Translations under genes and position numbers: made by a program
In this document: positions 2,389 to 13,247 of the stretch, piece after piece
Numbering within the stretch: position 1 is the stretch's first letter
Layout: each line of letters starts with the position of its first letter
Assembly: GCF_988243305.1 (NCBI RefSeq)
Contig: NZ_OZ547136.1
DNA: 64,000 nt
Direction: 5' to 3' (one strand)
The notes under the pieces: model-generated
What the model was told of the DNA's origin: nothing
The model's input: the letters and a program-made list of their open reading frames with translations, nothing else
Database searches by the model: none

Positions 2389-3801
2389 ATGGCTTCATTT
2401 ACATCTCTTGGCGTTGGTTCGAATCTGCCGCTGGATACATTGCTAAACAACCTGACCATCGCTGAAAAAAAACGCTTAAACCCAATTACTCAGCAACAGA
2501 GTGACAACACCGCACGTCTGACAGCCTATGGCACATTAAAAAGTGCATTAGAAAAATTCCAGACTGCAAATACTGCGTTAAATAAAGCCGATCTGTTCAA
2601 AAGCACTACCGTTACCAGTAGCAATGAAGACCTTAAAGTTTCCACCGAAGCAGGTGCTGCCCCCGGTATCTATACCATCAGCGTAACCCAACTGGCGCAG
2701 GCGCAATCTTTACGAACTGATTCCCCGACAATCATTGCATCAACAAAAGATGCACTGGGTGATGAGTCATCAGATACACGCACAATAAAAATTACCCAAG
2801 ACGGCCGTAAAGAGCCGCTGGAAATCAAGCTCAATAAAGATCAGACGTCATTGGATGAGATCAGCAAAACCATTAACGATGCCGATAGTGGAATTTCCGC
2901 TAGTATCGTTAAAGTCAAAGATGGTGACTATCAATTGGTATTGACCGCCAGTGAAGGTCTGGCCAATAAAATGACCATATCTGTTGAGGGTGACAGTAAA
3001 TTAAATGATCTGCTGGCTTATGACAGCAAGACCAACACCGGGAATATGAAGGAACTGGTTAACGCGCAAAATGCACAGCTAAACGTTAACGGTATCGATA
3101 TTGAACGTTCAAGTAACAAAATTACCGATGCTCCTCAGGGAGTGACTCTCGATTTGACCAAAAAAGTCACTGACGTCCGGGTCACGGTGACAAAAAGCAA
3201 CGATAAAGCAACCGAAGCAATTAAAGGCTGGGTGGATTCATATAACTCCCTCATTGACACCTTTAACACCCTGACAAAATATAAAGAAGTAGACCCAGGT
3301 GCTGAAGCACAAGATAAAAATAATGGTGCACTTCTCGGAGACAGCGTTGTACGTACAATTCAAAGCGGCATCCGCGCACAATTTGCAAACGGTGCCAGCG
3401 ACGGTGCCTTCAAAACATTAAACGAGATCGGGATTAAGCAGGACGGCACGACGGGTAAGCTGAAAATTGATGATGATAAACTCAAAAAAGTCCTGAATGA
3501 AAATACAGCATCCGTACGTGAATTGCTGGTAGGCGATGGTAAAGAAACAGGAATTACCACCAAAATTGCCACCGAGGTAAAAGGTTACCTTGCCGATGAT
3601 GGCATTATTGATAGCGCACAGGACAGTATTAACGCCACACTGAAAAAACTAACCAAACAGTATCTATCCGTCAGTGCCAGCATTGATGACACCGTGGCGC
3701 GTTACACTGCACAGTTTACGCAATTAGATACCATGATGAGCAAACTGAATAACACCAGTACCTATCTCAGCCAACAATTTACTGCAATGAGTAATTCCTG
3801 A
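2389..3801 (+). CDS. fliD: Flagellar filament capping protein FliD
   Basis: ATG at 2389 gives MASFTSLGVGSNLPLDTLL...; size and position after fliC match FliD; the track ORF from 2311 is an upstream extension. Confidence 0.9.
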   Translation: MASFTSLGVGSNLPLDTLLNNLTIAEKKRLNPITQQQSDNTARLTAYGTLKSALEKFQTANTALNKADLFKSTTVTSSNEDLKVSTEAGAAPGIYTISVTQLAQAQSLRTDSPTIIASTKDALGDESSDTRTIKITQDGRKEPLEIKLNKDQTSLDEISKTINDADSGISASIVKVKDGDYQLVLTASEGLANKMTISVEGDSKLNDLLAYDSKTNTGNMKELVNAQNAQLNVNGIDIERSSNKITDAPQGVTLDLTKKVTDVRVTVTKSNDKATEAIKGWVDSYNSLIDTFNTLTKYKEVDPGAEAQDKNNGALLGDSVVRTIQSGIRAQFANGASDGAFKTLNEIGIKQDGTTGKLKIDDDKLKKVLNENTASVRELLVGDGKETGITTKIATEVKGYLADDGIIDSAQDSINATLKKLTKQYLSVSASIDDTVARYTAQFTQLDTMMSKLNNTSTYLSQQFTAMSNS

Positions 3802-3815
3802 TCACGGAGGTCAGC

Positions 3816-4226
3816 ATGTATACCGCGAGCGGCTCAAAAGCCTATGCACAAATTGGCGTCGAAAGCGCCGTAATGAGCGCCAGCCAGCAGCAGCTGGTCA
3901 CCATGCTATTTGATGGAGTGCTGAGCGCACTGGTTAGAGCGCGCCTGTTTATGCAGGACAACAATCAGCAAGGCAAAGGCGTCTCTTTGTCAAAAGCGAT
4001 CAACATCATTGAGAACGGACTGCGGGTGAGTCTTGATGAAGAGAGCAAAGACGAATTAACCCAAAACTTGATTGCTCTTTATAGCTATATGGTCAGGCGC
4101 TTGCTGCAAGCCAATTTACGCAACGATGTCTCCGCAGTCGAAGAAGTGGAAGCATTAATGCGTAATATTGCCGATGCCTGGAAAGAGTCGTTACTCTCCC
4201 CTTCTTTGATTCAGGACCCAGTCTGA
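3816..4226 (+). CDS. fliS: Flagellin-specific chaperone FliS
   Basis: 136 aa [34 protein letters not shown]...; fliDST operon position. Confidence 0.92.
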
Positions 4227-4591
4227 TGAACCATGCACCGCATTTGTATTTCGCCTGGCAACAACTCGTCGAAAAAAGCCAGCTCATGTTACGCCTGGCA
4301 ACGGAAGAACAATGGGAAGAACTCATCGCCAGCGAAATGGCGTATGTGAATGCGGTGCAGGAGATTGCACATCTGACTGAAGAGATTGACCCGTCCACCA
4401 CGATGCAGGAGCAGCTCCGCCCGATGCTGCGCCTGATTCTCGACAACGAAAGCAAGGTAAAGCAGTTATTACAGATTCGGATGGATGAACTGGCGAAACT
4501 GGTCGGTCAGTCATCGGTGCAAAAATCGGTGTTAAGTGCCTATGGCGATCAGGGCGGCTTTGTGCTGGCTCCGCAGGATAACCTCTTTTGA
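4226..4591 (+). CDS. fliT: Flagellar chaperone and anti-FlhDC factor FliT
   Basis: 121 aa [33 protein letters not shown]...; start overlaps the fliS stop. Confidence 0.9.
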
Positions 4592-4668
4592 ATCTGAACG
4601 AGTCGATGGCTCGCGAATAATCCGATTACGGCTACGCTTCTAATGTTCCCCTTGAATGGAGTCGAAGA

Positions 4669-6156
4669 ATGCGTAATCCCACGCTGTTACAATGTTTTCA
4701 CTGGTATTACCCGGAAGGCGGTAAGCTCTGGCCTGAACTGGCCGAGCGCGCCGACGGTTTTAATGATATTGGTATCAATATGGTCTGGTTGCCGCCCGCC
4801 TATAAAGGCGCATCGGGCGGGTATTCGGTCGGCTACGACTCCTATGATTTATTTGATTTAGGCGAGTTTGATCAGAAAGGCAGCATCCCTACTAAATATG
4901 GCGATAAAGCACAACTGCTGGCCGCCATTGACGCTCTGAAACGTAATGACATTGCGGTGCTGTTGGACGTGGTAGTCAACCACAAAATGGGCGCGGATGA
5001 AAAAGAAGCTATTCGCGTGCAGCGTGTAAATGCTGATGACCGTACGCAAATTGACGAAGAAATCATAGAGTGCAAAGGCTGGACGCGTTACACCTTCCCC
5101 GCCCGTGCCGGGCAATACTCGCAGTTTATCTGGGATTTCAAATGTTTTAGCGGTATCGACCATATCGAAAACCCTGATGAAGATGGCATTTTTAAAATTG
5201 TTAACGACTACACCGGTGAAGGCTGGAACGATCAGGTTGATGATGAACTCGGTAATTTCGATTATCTGATGGGTGAGAATATCGATTTCCGCAATCATGC
5301 CGTGACGGAAGAGATTAAATACTGGGCGCGCTGGGTGATGGAACAAACACAATGCGACGGTTTTCGTCTTGATGCGGTCAAACATATTCCGGCGTGGTTT
5401 TATAAAGAGTGGATCGAACACGTACAGGAAGTTGCGCCAAAGCCGCTGTTTATTGTGGCGGAGTACTGGTCGCATGAAGTCGATAAACTGCAAACGTATA
5501 TTGATCAGGTGGAAGGCAAAACCATGCTGTTCGATGCGCCGCTGCAGATGAAATTCCATGAAGCATCGCGCATGGGGCGCGACTACGACATGACGCAGAT
5601 TTTCACGGGTACATTAGTGGAAGCCGATCCTTTCCACGCCGTGACGCTCGTTGCCAATCACGACACCCAACCGTTGCAAGCCCTCGAAGCGCCGGTCGAA
5701 CCGTGGTTTAAACCGCTGGCGTATGCCTTAATTTTGTTGCGGGAAAATGGCGTTCCTTCGGTATTCTATCCGGACCTCTACGGTGCGCATTACGAAGATG
5801 TCGGTGGTGACGGGCAAACCTATCCGATAGATATGCCAATAATCGAACAGCTTGATGAGTTAATTCTCGCCCGTCAGCGTTTCGCCCACGGTGTACAGAC
5901 GTTATTTTTCGACCATCCGAACTGCATTGCCTTTAGTCGCAGTGGCACTGACGAATATCCCGGCTGCGTGGTGGTCATGTCGAACGGGGATGATGGCGAA
6001 AAAACCATTCATCTGGGAGAGAATTACGGCAATAAAACCTGGCGTGATTTTCTGGGGAATCGGCAAGAGAGCGTAGTGACCGACGAAAACGGCGAAGCGA
6101 CCTTCTTTTGCAACGGCGGCAGCGTCAGCGTGTGGGTTATCGAAGAGGTGATTTAA
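4669..6156 (+). CDS. amyA: Cytoplasmic alpha-amylase
   Basis: 495 aa GH13-type sequence (…[14 protein letters not shown]…[11 protein letters not shown]…) in the conserved position after fliT. Confidence 0.9.
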
Positions 6157-6159
6157 ATT

Positions 6160-6188
6160 CATCCCCGGCGGCAAGCCGGGGAGATTTC
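6160..6188. terminator. Hairpin between convergent amyA and yedD, probable bidirectional terminator
   Basis: Inverted repeat ccccggc-ggcaa-gccgggg immediately after the amyA stop and before the yedD stop. Confidence 0.5.
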
Positions 6189-6189
6189 A

Positions 6190-6606
6190 TTACGGCAGTG
6201 GCGTCGGTAACGGCGCTTTATCCAGCGCGGCGGCACACTCTGCCGTCGGGCGATCCACACGCTCCATCGTCATACCATCGTACTCAATGGTGTTACCGTC
6301 ACGCTCAACCTCGTACAGCTCACGTTTTACGGTAACGTTAGTGAGATCATCAGACATCAATGTCAACTTGCCCGGCACGGCAATCACCCGCTGCCACTGA
6401 CGGCAATCCAGGGTATCGCCCTCTTTAGTGACAATCAGGCTGCCTATCGCTTCCGGACTGACCAGCGCACGTTGCGGCCCTTTGGTCTGCCAGTAGCCCG
6501 CCAGCCAGTCCGGCGCGGGGGTTTTCACGACATTGTTATAGTTTTCGACTTCGGCACAGCCCGCCAGCAACATGAGCGCGCCTGCAATTGCGAGTTTTTT
6601 CATCAT
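6190..6606 (-). CDS. yedD: Lipoprotein YedD
   Basis: Lipoprotein signal peptide with lipobox MMKKLAIAGALMLLAGC; 138 aa. Confidence 0.85.
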   Translation of the reverse strand: MMKKLAIAGALMLLAGCAEVENYNNVVKTPAPDWLAGYWQTKGPQRALVSPEAIGSLIVTKEGDTLDCRQWQRVIAVPGKLTLMSDDLTNVTVKRELYEVERDGNTIEYDGMTMERVDRPTAECAAALDKAPLPTPLP

Positions 6607-6789
6607 TCGTCCTGCATGAGAAGAAAAGAGGATTGTGGCATTAAAGCCCTGATGTCGCCAGCCTTTCCAGGTTCAGAGAGAAATTTGATCTAACTATTAT
6701 TTTTGTGAATTATTACCCCGAAAATAAATTTGCATGATGTATGATTCGCGATTCTTGTTTCAAACCTTCTGAGTTCAGAGGCTACATTC

Positions 6790-7995
6790 ATGTCATGGCA
6801 GCAATTCAAACACGCCTGGTTGATTAAATTCTGGGCACCCATCCCTGCGGTCATCGCGGCGGGTATTCTCTCCACTTACTATTTTGGCATTACTGGCACC
6901 TTTTGGGCTGTCACGGGTGAATTTACCCGTTGGGGCGGTCAGCTCCTGCAGCTGTTTGGCGTCCATGCTGAAGAGTGGGGTTATTTTAAAATTATCCATC
7001 TGGAAGGATCGCCATTAACCCGCATCGACGGGATGATGATCCTCGGCATGTTTGGCGGCTGCTTTGCCGCAGCGCTGTGGGCCAACAATGTCAAACTGCG
7101 CATGCCGCGCAGCCGTATCCGCATTATGCAGGCCATTATTGGCGGCATTATCGCCGGTTTTGGCGCGCGTCTGGCAATGGGCTGTAACCTGGCGGCGTTC
7201 TTTACCGGCATTCCTCAGTTCTCGCTGCATGCCTGGTTCTTTGCCATCGCCACTGCCATTGGTTCATGGTTTGGCGCGCGCTTTACCCTGCTGCCCATCT
7301 TCCGTATTCCCGTGAAAATGCAGAAAGTTTCTGCCGCCTCACCGCTGACGCAAAAACCGGATCAGGCGCGGCGTCGTTTTCGTCTCGGGATGCTGGTCTT
7401 TTTCGGCATGCTGGGCTGGGCGCTGCTCACGGCGATGAACCAACCCAAACTGGGGCTGGCAATGCTGTTTGGCGTCGGCTTTGGTTTACTGATTGAACGT
7501 GCGCAAATCTGCTTTACTTCGGCGTTCCGCGATATGTGGATCACCGGACGTACCCATATGGCGAAAGCAATCATTATCGGTATGGCGGTGAGTGCCATCG
7601 GGATCTTCAGTTACGTACAGTTAGGCGTTGAACCCAAAATCATGTGGGCGGGACCAAACGCGGTAATTGGTGGTTTACTGTTTGGTTTTGGCATCGTGCT
7701 GGCAGGCGGCTGCGAAACCGGCTGGATGTACCGCGCGGTAGAAGGCCAGGTGCACTACTGGTGGGTCGGTCTGGGCAATGTGATCGGCTCGACGATTCTG
7801 GCGTATTACTGGGATGATTTCGCTCCGGCGCTGGCCACCGACTGGGACAAAATCAACTTGCTGAAAACCTTTGGCCCGATGGGTGGCCTGCTGGTGACAT
7901 ATTTGCTGTTGTTTACTGCGCTGATGTTGATTATCGGCTGGGAAAAACGCTTCTTCCGCCGTGCGGCACCGCAGACTGCTAAGGAGATCGCATGA
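6790..7995 (+). CDS. yedE: YedE/YeeE family inner-membrane transporter-like protein (sulfur/selenium related)
   Basis: 401-aa polytopic membrane protein, translationally coupled to downstream yedF. Confidence 0.85.
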   Translation: MSWQQFKHAWLIKFWAPIPAVIAAGILSTYYFGITGTFWAVTGEFTRWGGQLLQLFGVHAEEWGYFKIIHLEGSPLTRIDGMMILGMFGGCFAAALWANNVKLRMPRSRIRIMQAIIGGIIAGFGARLAMGCNLAAFFTGIPQFSLHAWFFAIATAIGSWFGARFTLLPIFRIPVKMQKVSAASPLTQKPDQARRRFRLGMLVFFGMLGWALLTAMNQPKLGLAMLFGVGFGLLIERAQICFTSAFRDMWITGRTHMAKAIIIGMAVSAIGIFSYVQLGVEPKIMWAGPNAVIGGLLFGFGIVLAGGCETGWMYRAVEGQVHYWWVGLGNVIGSTILAYYWDDFAPALATDWDKINLLKTFGPMGGLLVTYLLLFTALMLIIGWEKRFFRRAAPQTAKEIA

Positions 7996-8331: not shown

Positions 8332-9000
8332 ATGTGTGGACGCTTTGCCCAATCCCAAACGCGTGAAGATTACCTTGCGCTTCTCGCGGAAGATATTGAA
8401 CGCGATATTCCCTACGATCCCGAACCCATTGGCAGATACAACGTCGCGCCGGGAACCAAAGTTCTTCTGCTCAGTGAACGTGATGAACACCTTCATCTGG
8501 ATCCGGTTTTCTGGGGATATGCTCCCGGATGGTGGGATAAACCGCCGCTGATTAACGCCCGCGTAGAAACTGCGGCCACCAGTCGTATGTTTAAACCGCT
8601 CTGGCAACATGGTCGGGCAATCTGTTTTGCCGATGGCTGGTTTGAGTGGAAAAAAGAAGGCGACAAAAAACAGCCTTATTTTATCTATCGCGCTGATGGA
8701 CAACCTGTTTTTATGGCCGCGATAGGTAGCACACCGTTTGAGCGCGGTGACGAAGCCGAAGGATTTTTAATTGTCACTGCAGCAGCAGACCAGGGTCTGG
8801 TAGATATTCATGACCGCCGCCCGCTGGTTCTGTCGCCAGAAGCTGCACAGGAATGGATGCGGCAAGAGATTGGCGGTAAAGAAGCATCAGAAATTGCTAC
8901 CAACGGCTGTGTGCCAGCAAACCAGTTCACCTGGCACCCGGTATCGCGCGCGGTGGGTAATATCAAAAACCAGGGAGCGGAGTTAATTCAACCGGTTTGA
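8332..9000 (+). CDS. yedK: SOS-response associated peptidase (SRAP) YedK, abasic-site processing protein
   Basis: 222 aa starting MCGRFAQ with the catalytic Cys2, a SRAP/HMCES hallmark. Confidence 0.9.
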   Translation: MCGRFAQSQTREDYLALLAEDIERDIPYDPEPIGRYNVAPGTKVLLLSERDEHLHLDPVFWGYAPGWWDKPPLINARVETAATSRMFKPLWQHGRAICFADGWFEWKKEGDKKQPYFIYRADGQPVFMAAIGSTPFERGDEAEGFLIVTAAADQGLVDIHDRRPLVLSPEAAQEWMRQEIGGKEASEIATNGCVPANQFTWHPVSRAVGNIKNQGAELIQPV

Positions 9001-9393
9001 TAAGCCAGGAGACTATTGATCAATAATACTGCGTCATAAGAAATCTCTATTAGACAAAGTAGACGCTCCTTCCACATGCGCCACAAGAAACCTCTATTCC
9101 AGTGACACAATTACGCCTGATTATTTCCCTAGCCCGGAATATGAATAAAAACATCAACAAAGATTAAATTATTCAAACGTTACTGTTGCGTCTGCGGTCG
9201 TAGCAACATTCGACGTGGTGATGAGTGTTAAAAGAGACACTCTGATGTTCAGAGGGGTTATCGCGTTTACGGATCGTGGATGGCAGAAAACTTTCAGGAT
9301 CAGGTATCCATTTTAAACCAGAAATTGAGTGAGTTTGCCCCATCCATGCCCCAAGCGGTGAGATTGGAAGTAATTAACAACAGGTTACAAAAC

Positions 9394-9708
9394 CTACACC
9401 TGCATGGACATCACTTCCTGATACGCCGCCACCAGCTTATTACGCACCTGAATCCCCATTTGCATAGAAACTGAGGCTTTTTGCATATCGGTCATCACAT
9501 CGTTTAACGCCACGCCGGGTTCACCGAGGGTGAATTTTTCTGCCTGCGTGCGGGCAGCTGTTTGTGTATCGCTAATGCGATCGAGCGCGGCGTGCAGCTG
9601 CCCGGCAAAACTAATGGTCGGTTGCGGCAGTGAATCCTGCGCACGCGCACTCATCGCCGTAGCCTGTAACTGGCTGATAACCCCTTCAATCCCCTGTATC
9701 GCTGACAT
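9394..9708 (-). CDS. fliE: Flagellar hook-basal body protein FliE
   Basis: 104 aa from the internal [27 protein letters not shown]...; divergent from fliF. Confidence 0.9.
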
Positions 9709-9922
9709 TTTCGTCTCCTGGATAATTTCTGTTAGCAAAGCCTACCAGTAAGTCAATAAGACAAAGGCGCTAAATAGCAACAAAAAAACGGGTTTATTGG
9801 CGGATAGAAAAAAACGAAAGCACAAATAATGGCAGCGTCAATTTTTCGAGTTTGCTGACCCGGGAGTGAGTCTTGTTCCACTTTGCCAATAACGCCGTCC
9901 ATAATCAGCCACGAGGTGCGCG

Positions 9923-13247
<3,325 letters not shown>

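Follow-up and report, generated by a model that had tools for sequence, protein, structure and literature searches.

A decayed prophage junction at the 3′ end of fliE as the probable origin of the compact yedK–fliE interval in Escherichia coli

Here we describe the interval between yedK and fliE in a 64,000-nucleotide stretch of Escherichia coli DNA (hereafter the window), which is very probably the degraded, integrase-side junction of a prophage that has been almost wholly lost, and not an unoccupied site. Temperate phages encoding a 434-aa tyrosine integrase, such as IdasGreatGrand and CobraSix, would integrate into the last ~20 bp of fliE. The phage attachment site (attP) would bring its own fliE stop and terminal codons, so that FliE would stay intact after integration, and the integrase gene (int) would come to run towards fliE in convergent orientation, with its 3′ end ~16 bp from the stop codon of fliE. 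As to the order of events, we infer that such a prophage integrated in an ancestor of E. coli and subsequently decayed. What would be left of it in the window, read towards fliE, is a 16-bp spacer, ~213 bp of orphan scaffold, 148 bp of the integrase end, a 16-bp arm and a 20-bp core.

The left boundary of the interval is yedK (8332–9000, + strand), an ORF of 222 aa with an ATG start, which is annotated in RefSeq as an SOS response-associated peptidase in a genome identical to the window here. The right boundary is fliE (9394–9708, − strand; 104 aa), with its stop codon at 9394–9396 and its start at 9708; the mechanical ORF extends to a TTG at 9738. Reading of the ORFs places the gap between the two stops at 9001–9393, that is, 393 bp. 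The preliminary description of this DNA had reported 393 bp of non-coding sequence between the two genes, and both the ORF ends and the RefSeq annotation of E. coli JE86-ST05 bear this out: the interval is 100% identical in that strain, and the yedK and fliE ends are annotated there as in the window. The ~1-kb stretch around the gap is 99.9% identical to that of the O121 strain RM8352. The G+C content is 41.5% in the interval versus 47–57% in the flanking genes.

The main component of the interval that can be assigned to a phage is the intG remnant (9230–9377, + strand), a 148-bp, 3′-terminal piece of a tyrosine integrase gene (91% DNA identity over 148 nt). A search of the 393 bp for integrase remnants, proposed in the preliminary description, thus had a positive outcome. 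The translated frame matches the integrase C terminus in 172 phage records (tblastn against phages), the best match being Escherichia phage IdasGreatGrand (82.6% identity over 46 aa, E = 1e-17; 38 of 46 residues identical by BLASTP against its integrase). At the protein level, positions 9238–9375 correspond to residues 386–431 of the 434-aa integrase. Integrases of the IdasGreatGrand type comprise the Pfam domains Arm-DNA-bind_2, Int_N and Phage_integrase, and the catalytic domain spans residues 203–396 in the intact relative, of which the window keeps only what lies within 386–431. The remnant is a pseudogene fragment, devoid of the complete catalytic domain (Phage_integrase, PF00589) and of the arm-binding N-terminal domain. 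RefSeq records an ‘integrase, incomplete’ pseudogene at the equivalent of 9238–9360 in JE86-ST05. The 80-aa frame running through the remnant matches no Pfam family, because the fragment is too short. The remnant ends 16 bp before the fliE stop, and the end of the gene points at the junction.

At the DNA level, the window from 9230 to 9413 aligns with IdasGreatGrand over 171 of 195 bases (88% overall, E = 1e-69), with one 11-bp gap. This 11-bp deletion, which is common to the window and K-12, removes the integrase stop codon. As a result, an ORF of 64 codons (9280–9474, + strand) passes from the C-terminal frame of the integrase through the phage arm and into antisense fliE. The preliminary description had thought this ORF unlikely to be real, and rightly so: it is a chimaera of integrase tail and antisense fliE generated by the deletion, and it has no Pfam match. 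Two TGCCCCA motifs (TTGCCCCA and ATGCCCCA; 9335–9353, + strand) are located inside the remnant. Paired TGCCCCA motifs are kept next to fliE in all integrase-bearing loci of the other genera described below, and phages IdasGreatGrand and PHB10 have similar repeated motifs around attP. The motifs are possibly arm-type integrase binding sites.

Between the end of the integrase remnant and the fliE stop lies a 16-bp phage arm, CAACAGGTTACAAAAC (9378–9393), followed by a 20-bp attachment (att) core, CTACACCTGCATGGACATCA (9394–9413), which is made up of the fliE stop codon, the last five fliE codons and two further bases. Together, arm and core (CAACAGGTTACAAAAC and CTACACCTGCATGGACATCA, 9378–9413) are identical at 36 of 36 positions to the attP region of IdasGreatGrand. 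The fliE end in the window carries the phage-type Ser codon TCC, whereas that of K-12 has AGC. The 20-bp core recurs as a direct repeat at both ends of two elements in other E. coli genomes, the prophage of UTAK-1 and the remnant in UTI89. In UTI89, the displaced copy of the core does not have the 16-bp arm; since this second copy holds only the 20-bp part, the 20 bp can be taken as the core that phage and host have in common, and the other 16 bp as phage arm. The preliminary description had also proposed looking in the 393 bp for att-like repeats. A phage arm and core were found, but a second, direct-repeat copy of the core was not: none was detected in the window, allowing up to 3–6 mismatches, and none in K-12-type alleles. 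The window therefore retains a single junction of an element most of which has been deleted.

The closest known phage systems are the int–attP modules of IdasGreatGrand (PP925829) and Enterobacter phage vB_EclS_CobraSix (NC_071003). The last 46 int codons, the 16-bp arm and the 20-bp core of the IdasGreatGrand type match the window. By contrast, these phages encode the entire 434-aa integrase as well as an excisionase and have a P′ arm, whereas the window has the terminal 148 bp of the gene only and no P′ arm. CobraSix carries an Enterobacter-type fliE end. Integration at the 3′ end of a protein-coding gene, with the phage bringing a replacement end, is familiar from the lambdoid phage 21 and the element e14 in icd. 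As in that system, the att core at fliE overlaps the end of the host gene, and the reading frame is restored by the phage copy, which differs from the host end at synonymous positions (AGC/TCC for Ser, and GTG/GTT for Val in Citrobacter lysogens); the target gene and the integrase lineage differ here. The literature that we searched holds no description of the fliE 3′ end as a phage att site.

We compared the window by local alignment with the same locus of the K-12 derivative MC1061, in which 2,210 bp separate the two stops, so that the window interval is ~1.8 kb shorter. The MC1061 interval contains yedL (a GNAT acetyltransferase), a frameshifted DUF5503/LRR pseudogene (yedN/yedM) and the intG region, which agrees with the preliminary description in that K-12 carries extra genes here. 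Its further statement that the whole yedL/yedN/yedM/intG segment is missing from the window holds for yedL and yedN/M, but not for intG, of which the remnant at 9230–9377 is present. The window equals K-12 minus two separate pieces, and what remains forms three colinear blocks, each ~94% identical: window 8905–9059 against MC1061 locus 3964–4118 (94.2%), 9060–9126 against 4722–4788 (94.0%) and 9123–9500, which includes the intG remnant, against 6001–6376 (94.2%). At the first junction (9059–9060), K-12 has a 603-bp unit composed of yedL flanked by 51 bp on its upstream side and 72 bp on its downstream side. At the second (9123–9127, ambiguous over 4 bp, with the break placed at 9126|9127), it has a unit of ~1,212 bp, composed of the yedN/yedM LRR pseudogene with ~80 bp upstream and 4 bp downstream. 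Thus, in this test of synteny, the interval does not match that of K-12, which is longer by two units at the same yedK–fliE site. The two loci share their flanking genes, the intG remnant with the same 11-bp deletion and the same three scaffold segments; they differ in the yedL unit and in the yedN/M unit, whose LRR/DUF5503 product is EspR-like. Neither unit has a match anywhere in the 64-kb window. A yedL-only genome has the same empty second junction as the window.

The breakpoints of both indels are free of repeats, microhomology and target-site duplications, and neither unit was found to be bordered by the signatures of a mobile element, namely a target duplication, inverted repeats, an integrase or a transposase. 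No inverted repeats were found in the interval. The part of the interval next to yedK starts with a 16-bp spacer, TAAGCCAGGAGACTAT (9001–9016), which is the only yedK-side part common to all E. coli alleles and is presumed to be the original bacterial arm of the att site; homology with UTI89-type genomes stops at 9016. It is followed by three scaffold segments, which in K-12 lie between yedK and the yedL unit (9017–9059), between yedL and yedN (9060–9126; 67 bp) and between yedM and intG (9127–9229). The first two segments each contain one copy of a 22-nt imperfect direct repeat (9030–9051 and 9077–9098; 86% identical), the only direct repeat found, which brackets the position of yedL; in K-12, the two copies are 650 bp apart. 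The scaffold (9017–9229), yedL and yedN/M have no DNA match among sequenced phages, and the whole K-12 interval matches phage DNA at the integrase tail only; a phage origin of scaffold, yedL and yedN/M is assumed. In some E. coli, RefSeq annotates an 18-codon ORF just 3′ of yedL as a ‘cyclic lactone autoinducer peptide (AgrD family)’, as at 2410–2466 of the yedL-only genome locus; it looks like a spurious call in the non-coding scaffold.

Among 5,426 complete E. coli genomes, 5,278 contain some part of the 393 bp and 2,695 the K-12-type scaffold. The compact form, in which both junctions are those of the window, is present in 1,014 genomes (18.7%); 992 of these share at least 99% identity with the window, against ~94–96% for the K-type scaffolds. 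The yedL-only form accounts for about 130–170 genomes (an estimate by subtraction), and the junction of the UTI89 type, in which yedK, spacer, core and arm follow one another, is intact in 456. A synthetic virgin junction, in which the yedK end and 16 bp were joined to the fliE end, was found in none of the genomes, and a truly empty site thus appears to be absent from E. coli. The window allele is a common, strongly reduced scar. The locus had been proposed to be a variable hot spot, and this is well borne out: at least six structural alleles were seen, plus the intact prophage. All four combinations of presence and absence of yedL and the LRR gene exist, UTAK-1 providing the form with the LRR gene only. 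In the O157-like E. coli strain 118 (locus 2879–7342), a tandem duplication of yedL, LRR effector and integrase remnant gives rise to espR3 and espR4, and the first duplicated copy ends exactly at the start of the 16-bp phage arm.

UTI89-type genomes carry a larger remnant. Here, the interval contains a porin gene, ybcM, ybcL and emrE, ~4 kb of prophage cargo that we take to resemble prophage DLP12 of K-12. A second copy of the 20-bp core, CTACACCTGGATGGACATCA, lies 16 bp after the yedK stop; the DNA beyond it is unrelated and contains many ATGCCCC motifs. The UTI89-type allele has the same att core at fliE as the window and the same integrase tail from 9257 on; it differs in that the ~4 kb of cargo, the core next to yedK and the integrase stop codon are kept. 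The K-12-type and window-type alleles diverge from it exactly at the edge of the displaced core. Many further UTI89-type junctions are separated from yedK by an IS200/IS605 element. An IS200/IS605 split at the yedK stop is widespread among E. coli genomes; in E. coli VG35A2 (locus 1314–2993), for instance, the element (tnpB with a damaged tnpA) sits at the yedK stop, and the YedK C terminus is slightly altered.

The intact state is seen in UTAK-1, where a complete, 38.7-kb P22-like prophage separates fliE from the old remnant, which is displaced to the far side of the prophage. Its integrase is 98.4% identical to that of IdasGreatGrand. The core is present at both ends of the prophage (reverse-complement locus coordinates 10553–10572 and 49278–49297); at the far end, it is followed by a P′ arm whose sequence is the same as in IdasGreatGrand. 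The two copies differ at one Ser codon, which is AGC (K-12-type, that is, host) in the far copy and TCC (phage-type) in the copy at fliE. It follows that the phage brings in a synonymous version of the fliE end in place of the host one, and that the crossover falls within the last 5 bp of the core. In the old remnant of UTAK-1, the two copies of the 22-nt repeat are merged into one. A full-length integrase is present in 8 of the 5,426 E. coli genomes and adjoins fliE in at least six of them.

To extend the comparison across species, we used a degenerate DNA pattern for the conserved FliE peptide on a collection of one genome per species, which yielded 106 loci. A member of the fliE-type integrase family, or a remnant of one, lies 3′ of fliE in 32 of these 106 Enterobacterales species representatives, from the genera Escherichia, Citrobacter, Enterobacter, Erwinia, Pantoea and Mixta. 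All 32 are convergent with fliE and end 22–77 bp from the FliE C terminus; ten of them, from Citrobacter, Enterobacter, Erwinia and Pantoea, are almost full length. Across genera, the junctions have host-matched fliE ends, with GTT-TAG in Citrobacter lysogens versus GTG-TAG in unoccupied Citrobacter. Within Escherichia, remnants or integrases are also present in E. albertii, E. whittamii and Escherichia sp. E1V33. Several Citrobacter species have an unoccupied site, at which yedF and a hairpin are followed by the fliE stop within ~15 bp and yedK is absent. Both occupied and unoccupied states of the fliE site thus exist in nature, the latter only in outgroups such as Citrobacter.

Several further loci are worth recording. 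The yedF–fliE space of E. albertii (locus 70–2824) consists of 2.7 kb of AT-rich DNA with an integrase remnant next to fliE and no yedK; a 102-aa ORF within it (837–1145, − strand) resembles, by eye, PerC-type prophage regulators. In Salmonella enterica subsp. diarizonae and arizonae, yedF and fliE are ~0.8 kb apart, with a small, secreted-looking ORF in between; this space contains no yedK, and tblastn detected no integrase remnant in it. An E. coli-type fliE end with an integrase remnant also occurs on a 268-bp contig labelled Nocardioides malaquae and, together with yedK at 96% identity, on a contig of a Lachnospiraceae metagenome-assembled genome; both are most likely E. coli contamination.

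How the compact form arose can be read in several ways. The preliminary description took it for an empty or ancestral-like state, which would make the yedL–intG block of K-12 a single insertion. The shortness of the interval relative to K-12 and the absence of yedL and yedN/M from the window are what such a history would leave, but the window also holds an integrase fragment, a phage arm and phage-type terminal fliE codons; moreover, it differs from K-12 by two separate indels and not by one block, all four presence/absence combinations exist, and the virgin junction occurs in 0 of 5,426 E. coli genomes. We therefore consider an empty site highly improbable. Scarcely any credence attaches, either, to the idea that the interval is itself functional and was retained for the sake of the 64-codon ORF, a small RNA or a terminator. 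The ORF is indeed open over its 64 codons, and the fliE strand has a single weak hairpin resembling a terminator (9254–9240); against this, the ORF is the chimaera described above, an Rfam scan of the interval gave no match at E ≤ 1, no promoter-like sites were seen, terminator-like sites were not above shuffled expectation, and the hairpin region is missing from UTI89-type alleles. We attribute a function solely to the 20-bp core, as an attB that can still be used, on the basis of the natural lysogens.

Some observations weigh against the preferred reading, that of a decayed prophage junction: with a single core copy, the window does not preserve the far junction of the original prophage; the scaffold, yedL and yedN/M are without a DNA match among phages; and the K-12-type sequence departs from the UTI89 type precisely at the core edge. 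Within this reading, the direction of the two indels has still to be weighed. We infer, with a slight leaning, that yedL and yedN/M were lost by deletion during decay. The opposite polarity, in which the compact scar is the older form and the K-12- and O157-type alleles later gained yedL and one or more LRR effector genes as self-contained units of cargo, whether on the chromosome or within a phage that recombined with the scar, is a serious contender that falls somewhat short of our preference. Each indel comprises one gene with short flanks, and such neat indels, with no repeats at their breakpoints, fit cargo insertion as well as deletion. The occurrence of all four yedL/LRR combinations, the further gain through tandem duplication in O157-like genomes, and the compact allele being a distinct, abundant and old haplotype (992 of 1,014 genomes at ≥99% identity, with K-type scaffolds at ~94–96%) point the same way. 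On the other side, neither unit is bordered by a mobile-element signature, prophage remnants generally shrink through deletion, and UTAK-1 shows that yedL can be lost via recombination between the 22-nt repeats. The cross-species loci yielded no outgroup with the scaffold that would set the polarity.

The prophage-derived DNA may extend further. The entire stretch from the yedF terminator to fliE could have come from a prophage, yedK having entered the E. coli lineage as the first cargo gene next to attP of a phage inserted at the fliE 3′ end and having become fixed as the remaining prophage decayed; we put this forward tentatively. YedK is the bacterial model for HMCES/SRAP abasic-site crosslinking. 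In Citrobacter, Salmonella and E. albertii, no yedK is found between yedF and fliE, and phage-borne YedK homologues with 79–84% identity adjoin the att site and are oriented like int: the gene immediately follows int in PHB10, lies near the end of the Gifsy-2 prophage and is at the end of the record in a Klebsiella phage. This layout matches the order yedF, yedK, int remnant and fliE. PHB10 was considered as a fliE-integrating phage and rejected, its integrase being only 44% identical and its attP having no fliE core; for the same reasons, it supports the argument from layout only. Against a phage origin of yedK, the displaced core of UTI89-type genomes lies downstream of yedK, so that yedK must have been in place before at least the last integration, and no convincing core remnant was found between yedF and yedK. 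Loss of yedK in the outgroups is a possible alternative to its gain from a phage. In PHB10 (2436–4675), the yedK homologue that directly follows int and attP is near umuDC-like genes; CobraSix likewise has umuDC-like genes beside attP, and no YedK match.

For annotation, the yedK–fliE interval is to be treated as a prophage junction, comprising an intG remnant and an att core, and not as an empty site, and the 64-codon ORF is not a gene. Since the integration site lies there, cargo collects between yedK and fliE: yedL, EspR3/EspR4-type effectors in O157 and emrE–ybcL–ybcM in B2. Every complete E. coli genome examined in which the locus is retained carries at least a scar at fliE, and in the strain of the window the final codons of this core flagellar gene are phage-supplied. 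The interval is in itself an ordinary feature, a tidy case of prophage decay at a gene-end att site, and the site adds a further example to a well-known type while leaving known principles unchanged. The last 20 bp of fliE emerge as a recurrent target of one integrase family across the Enterobacterales.
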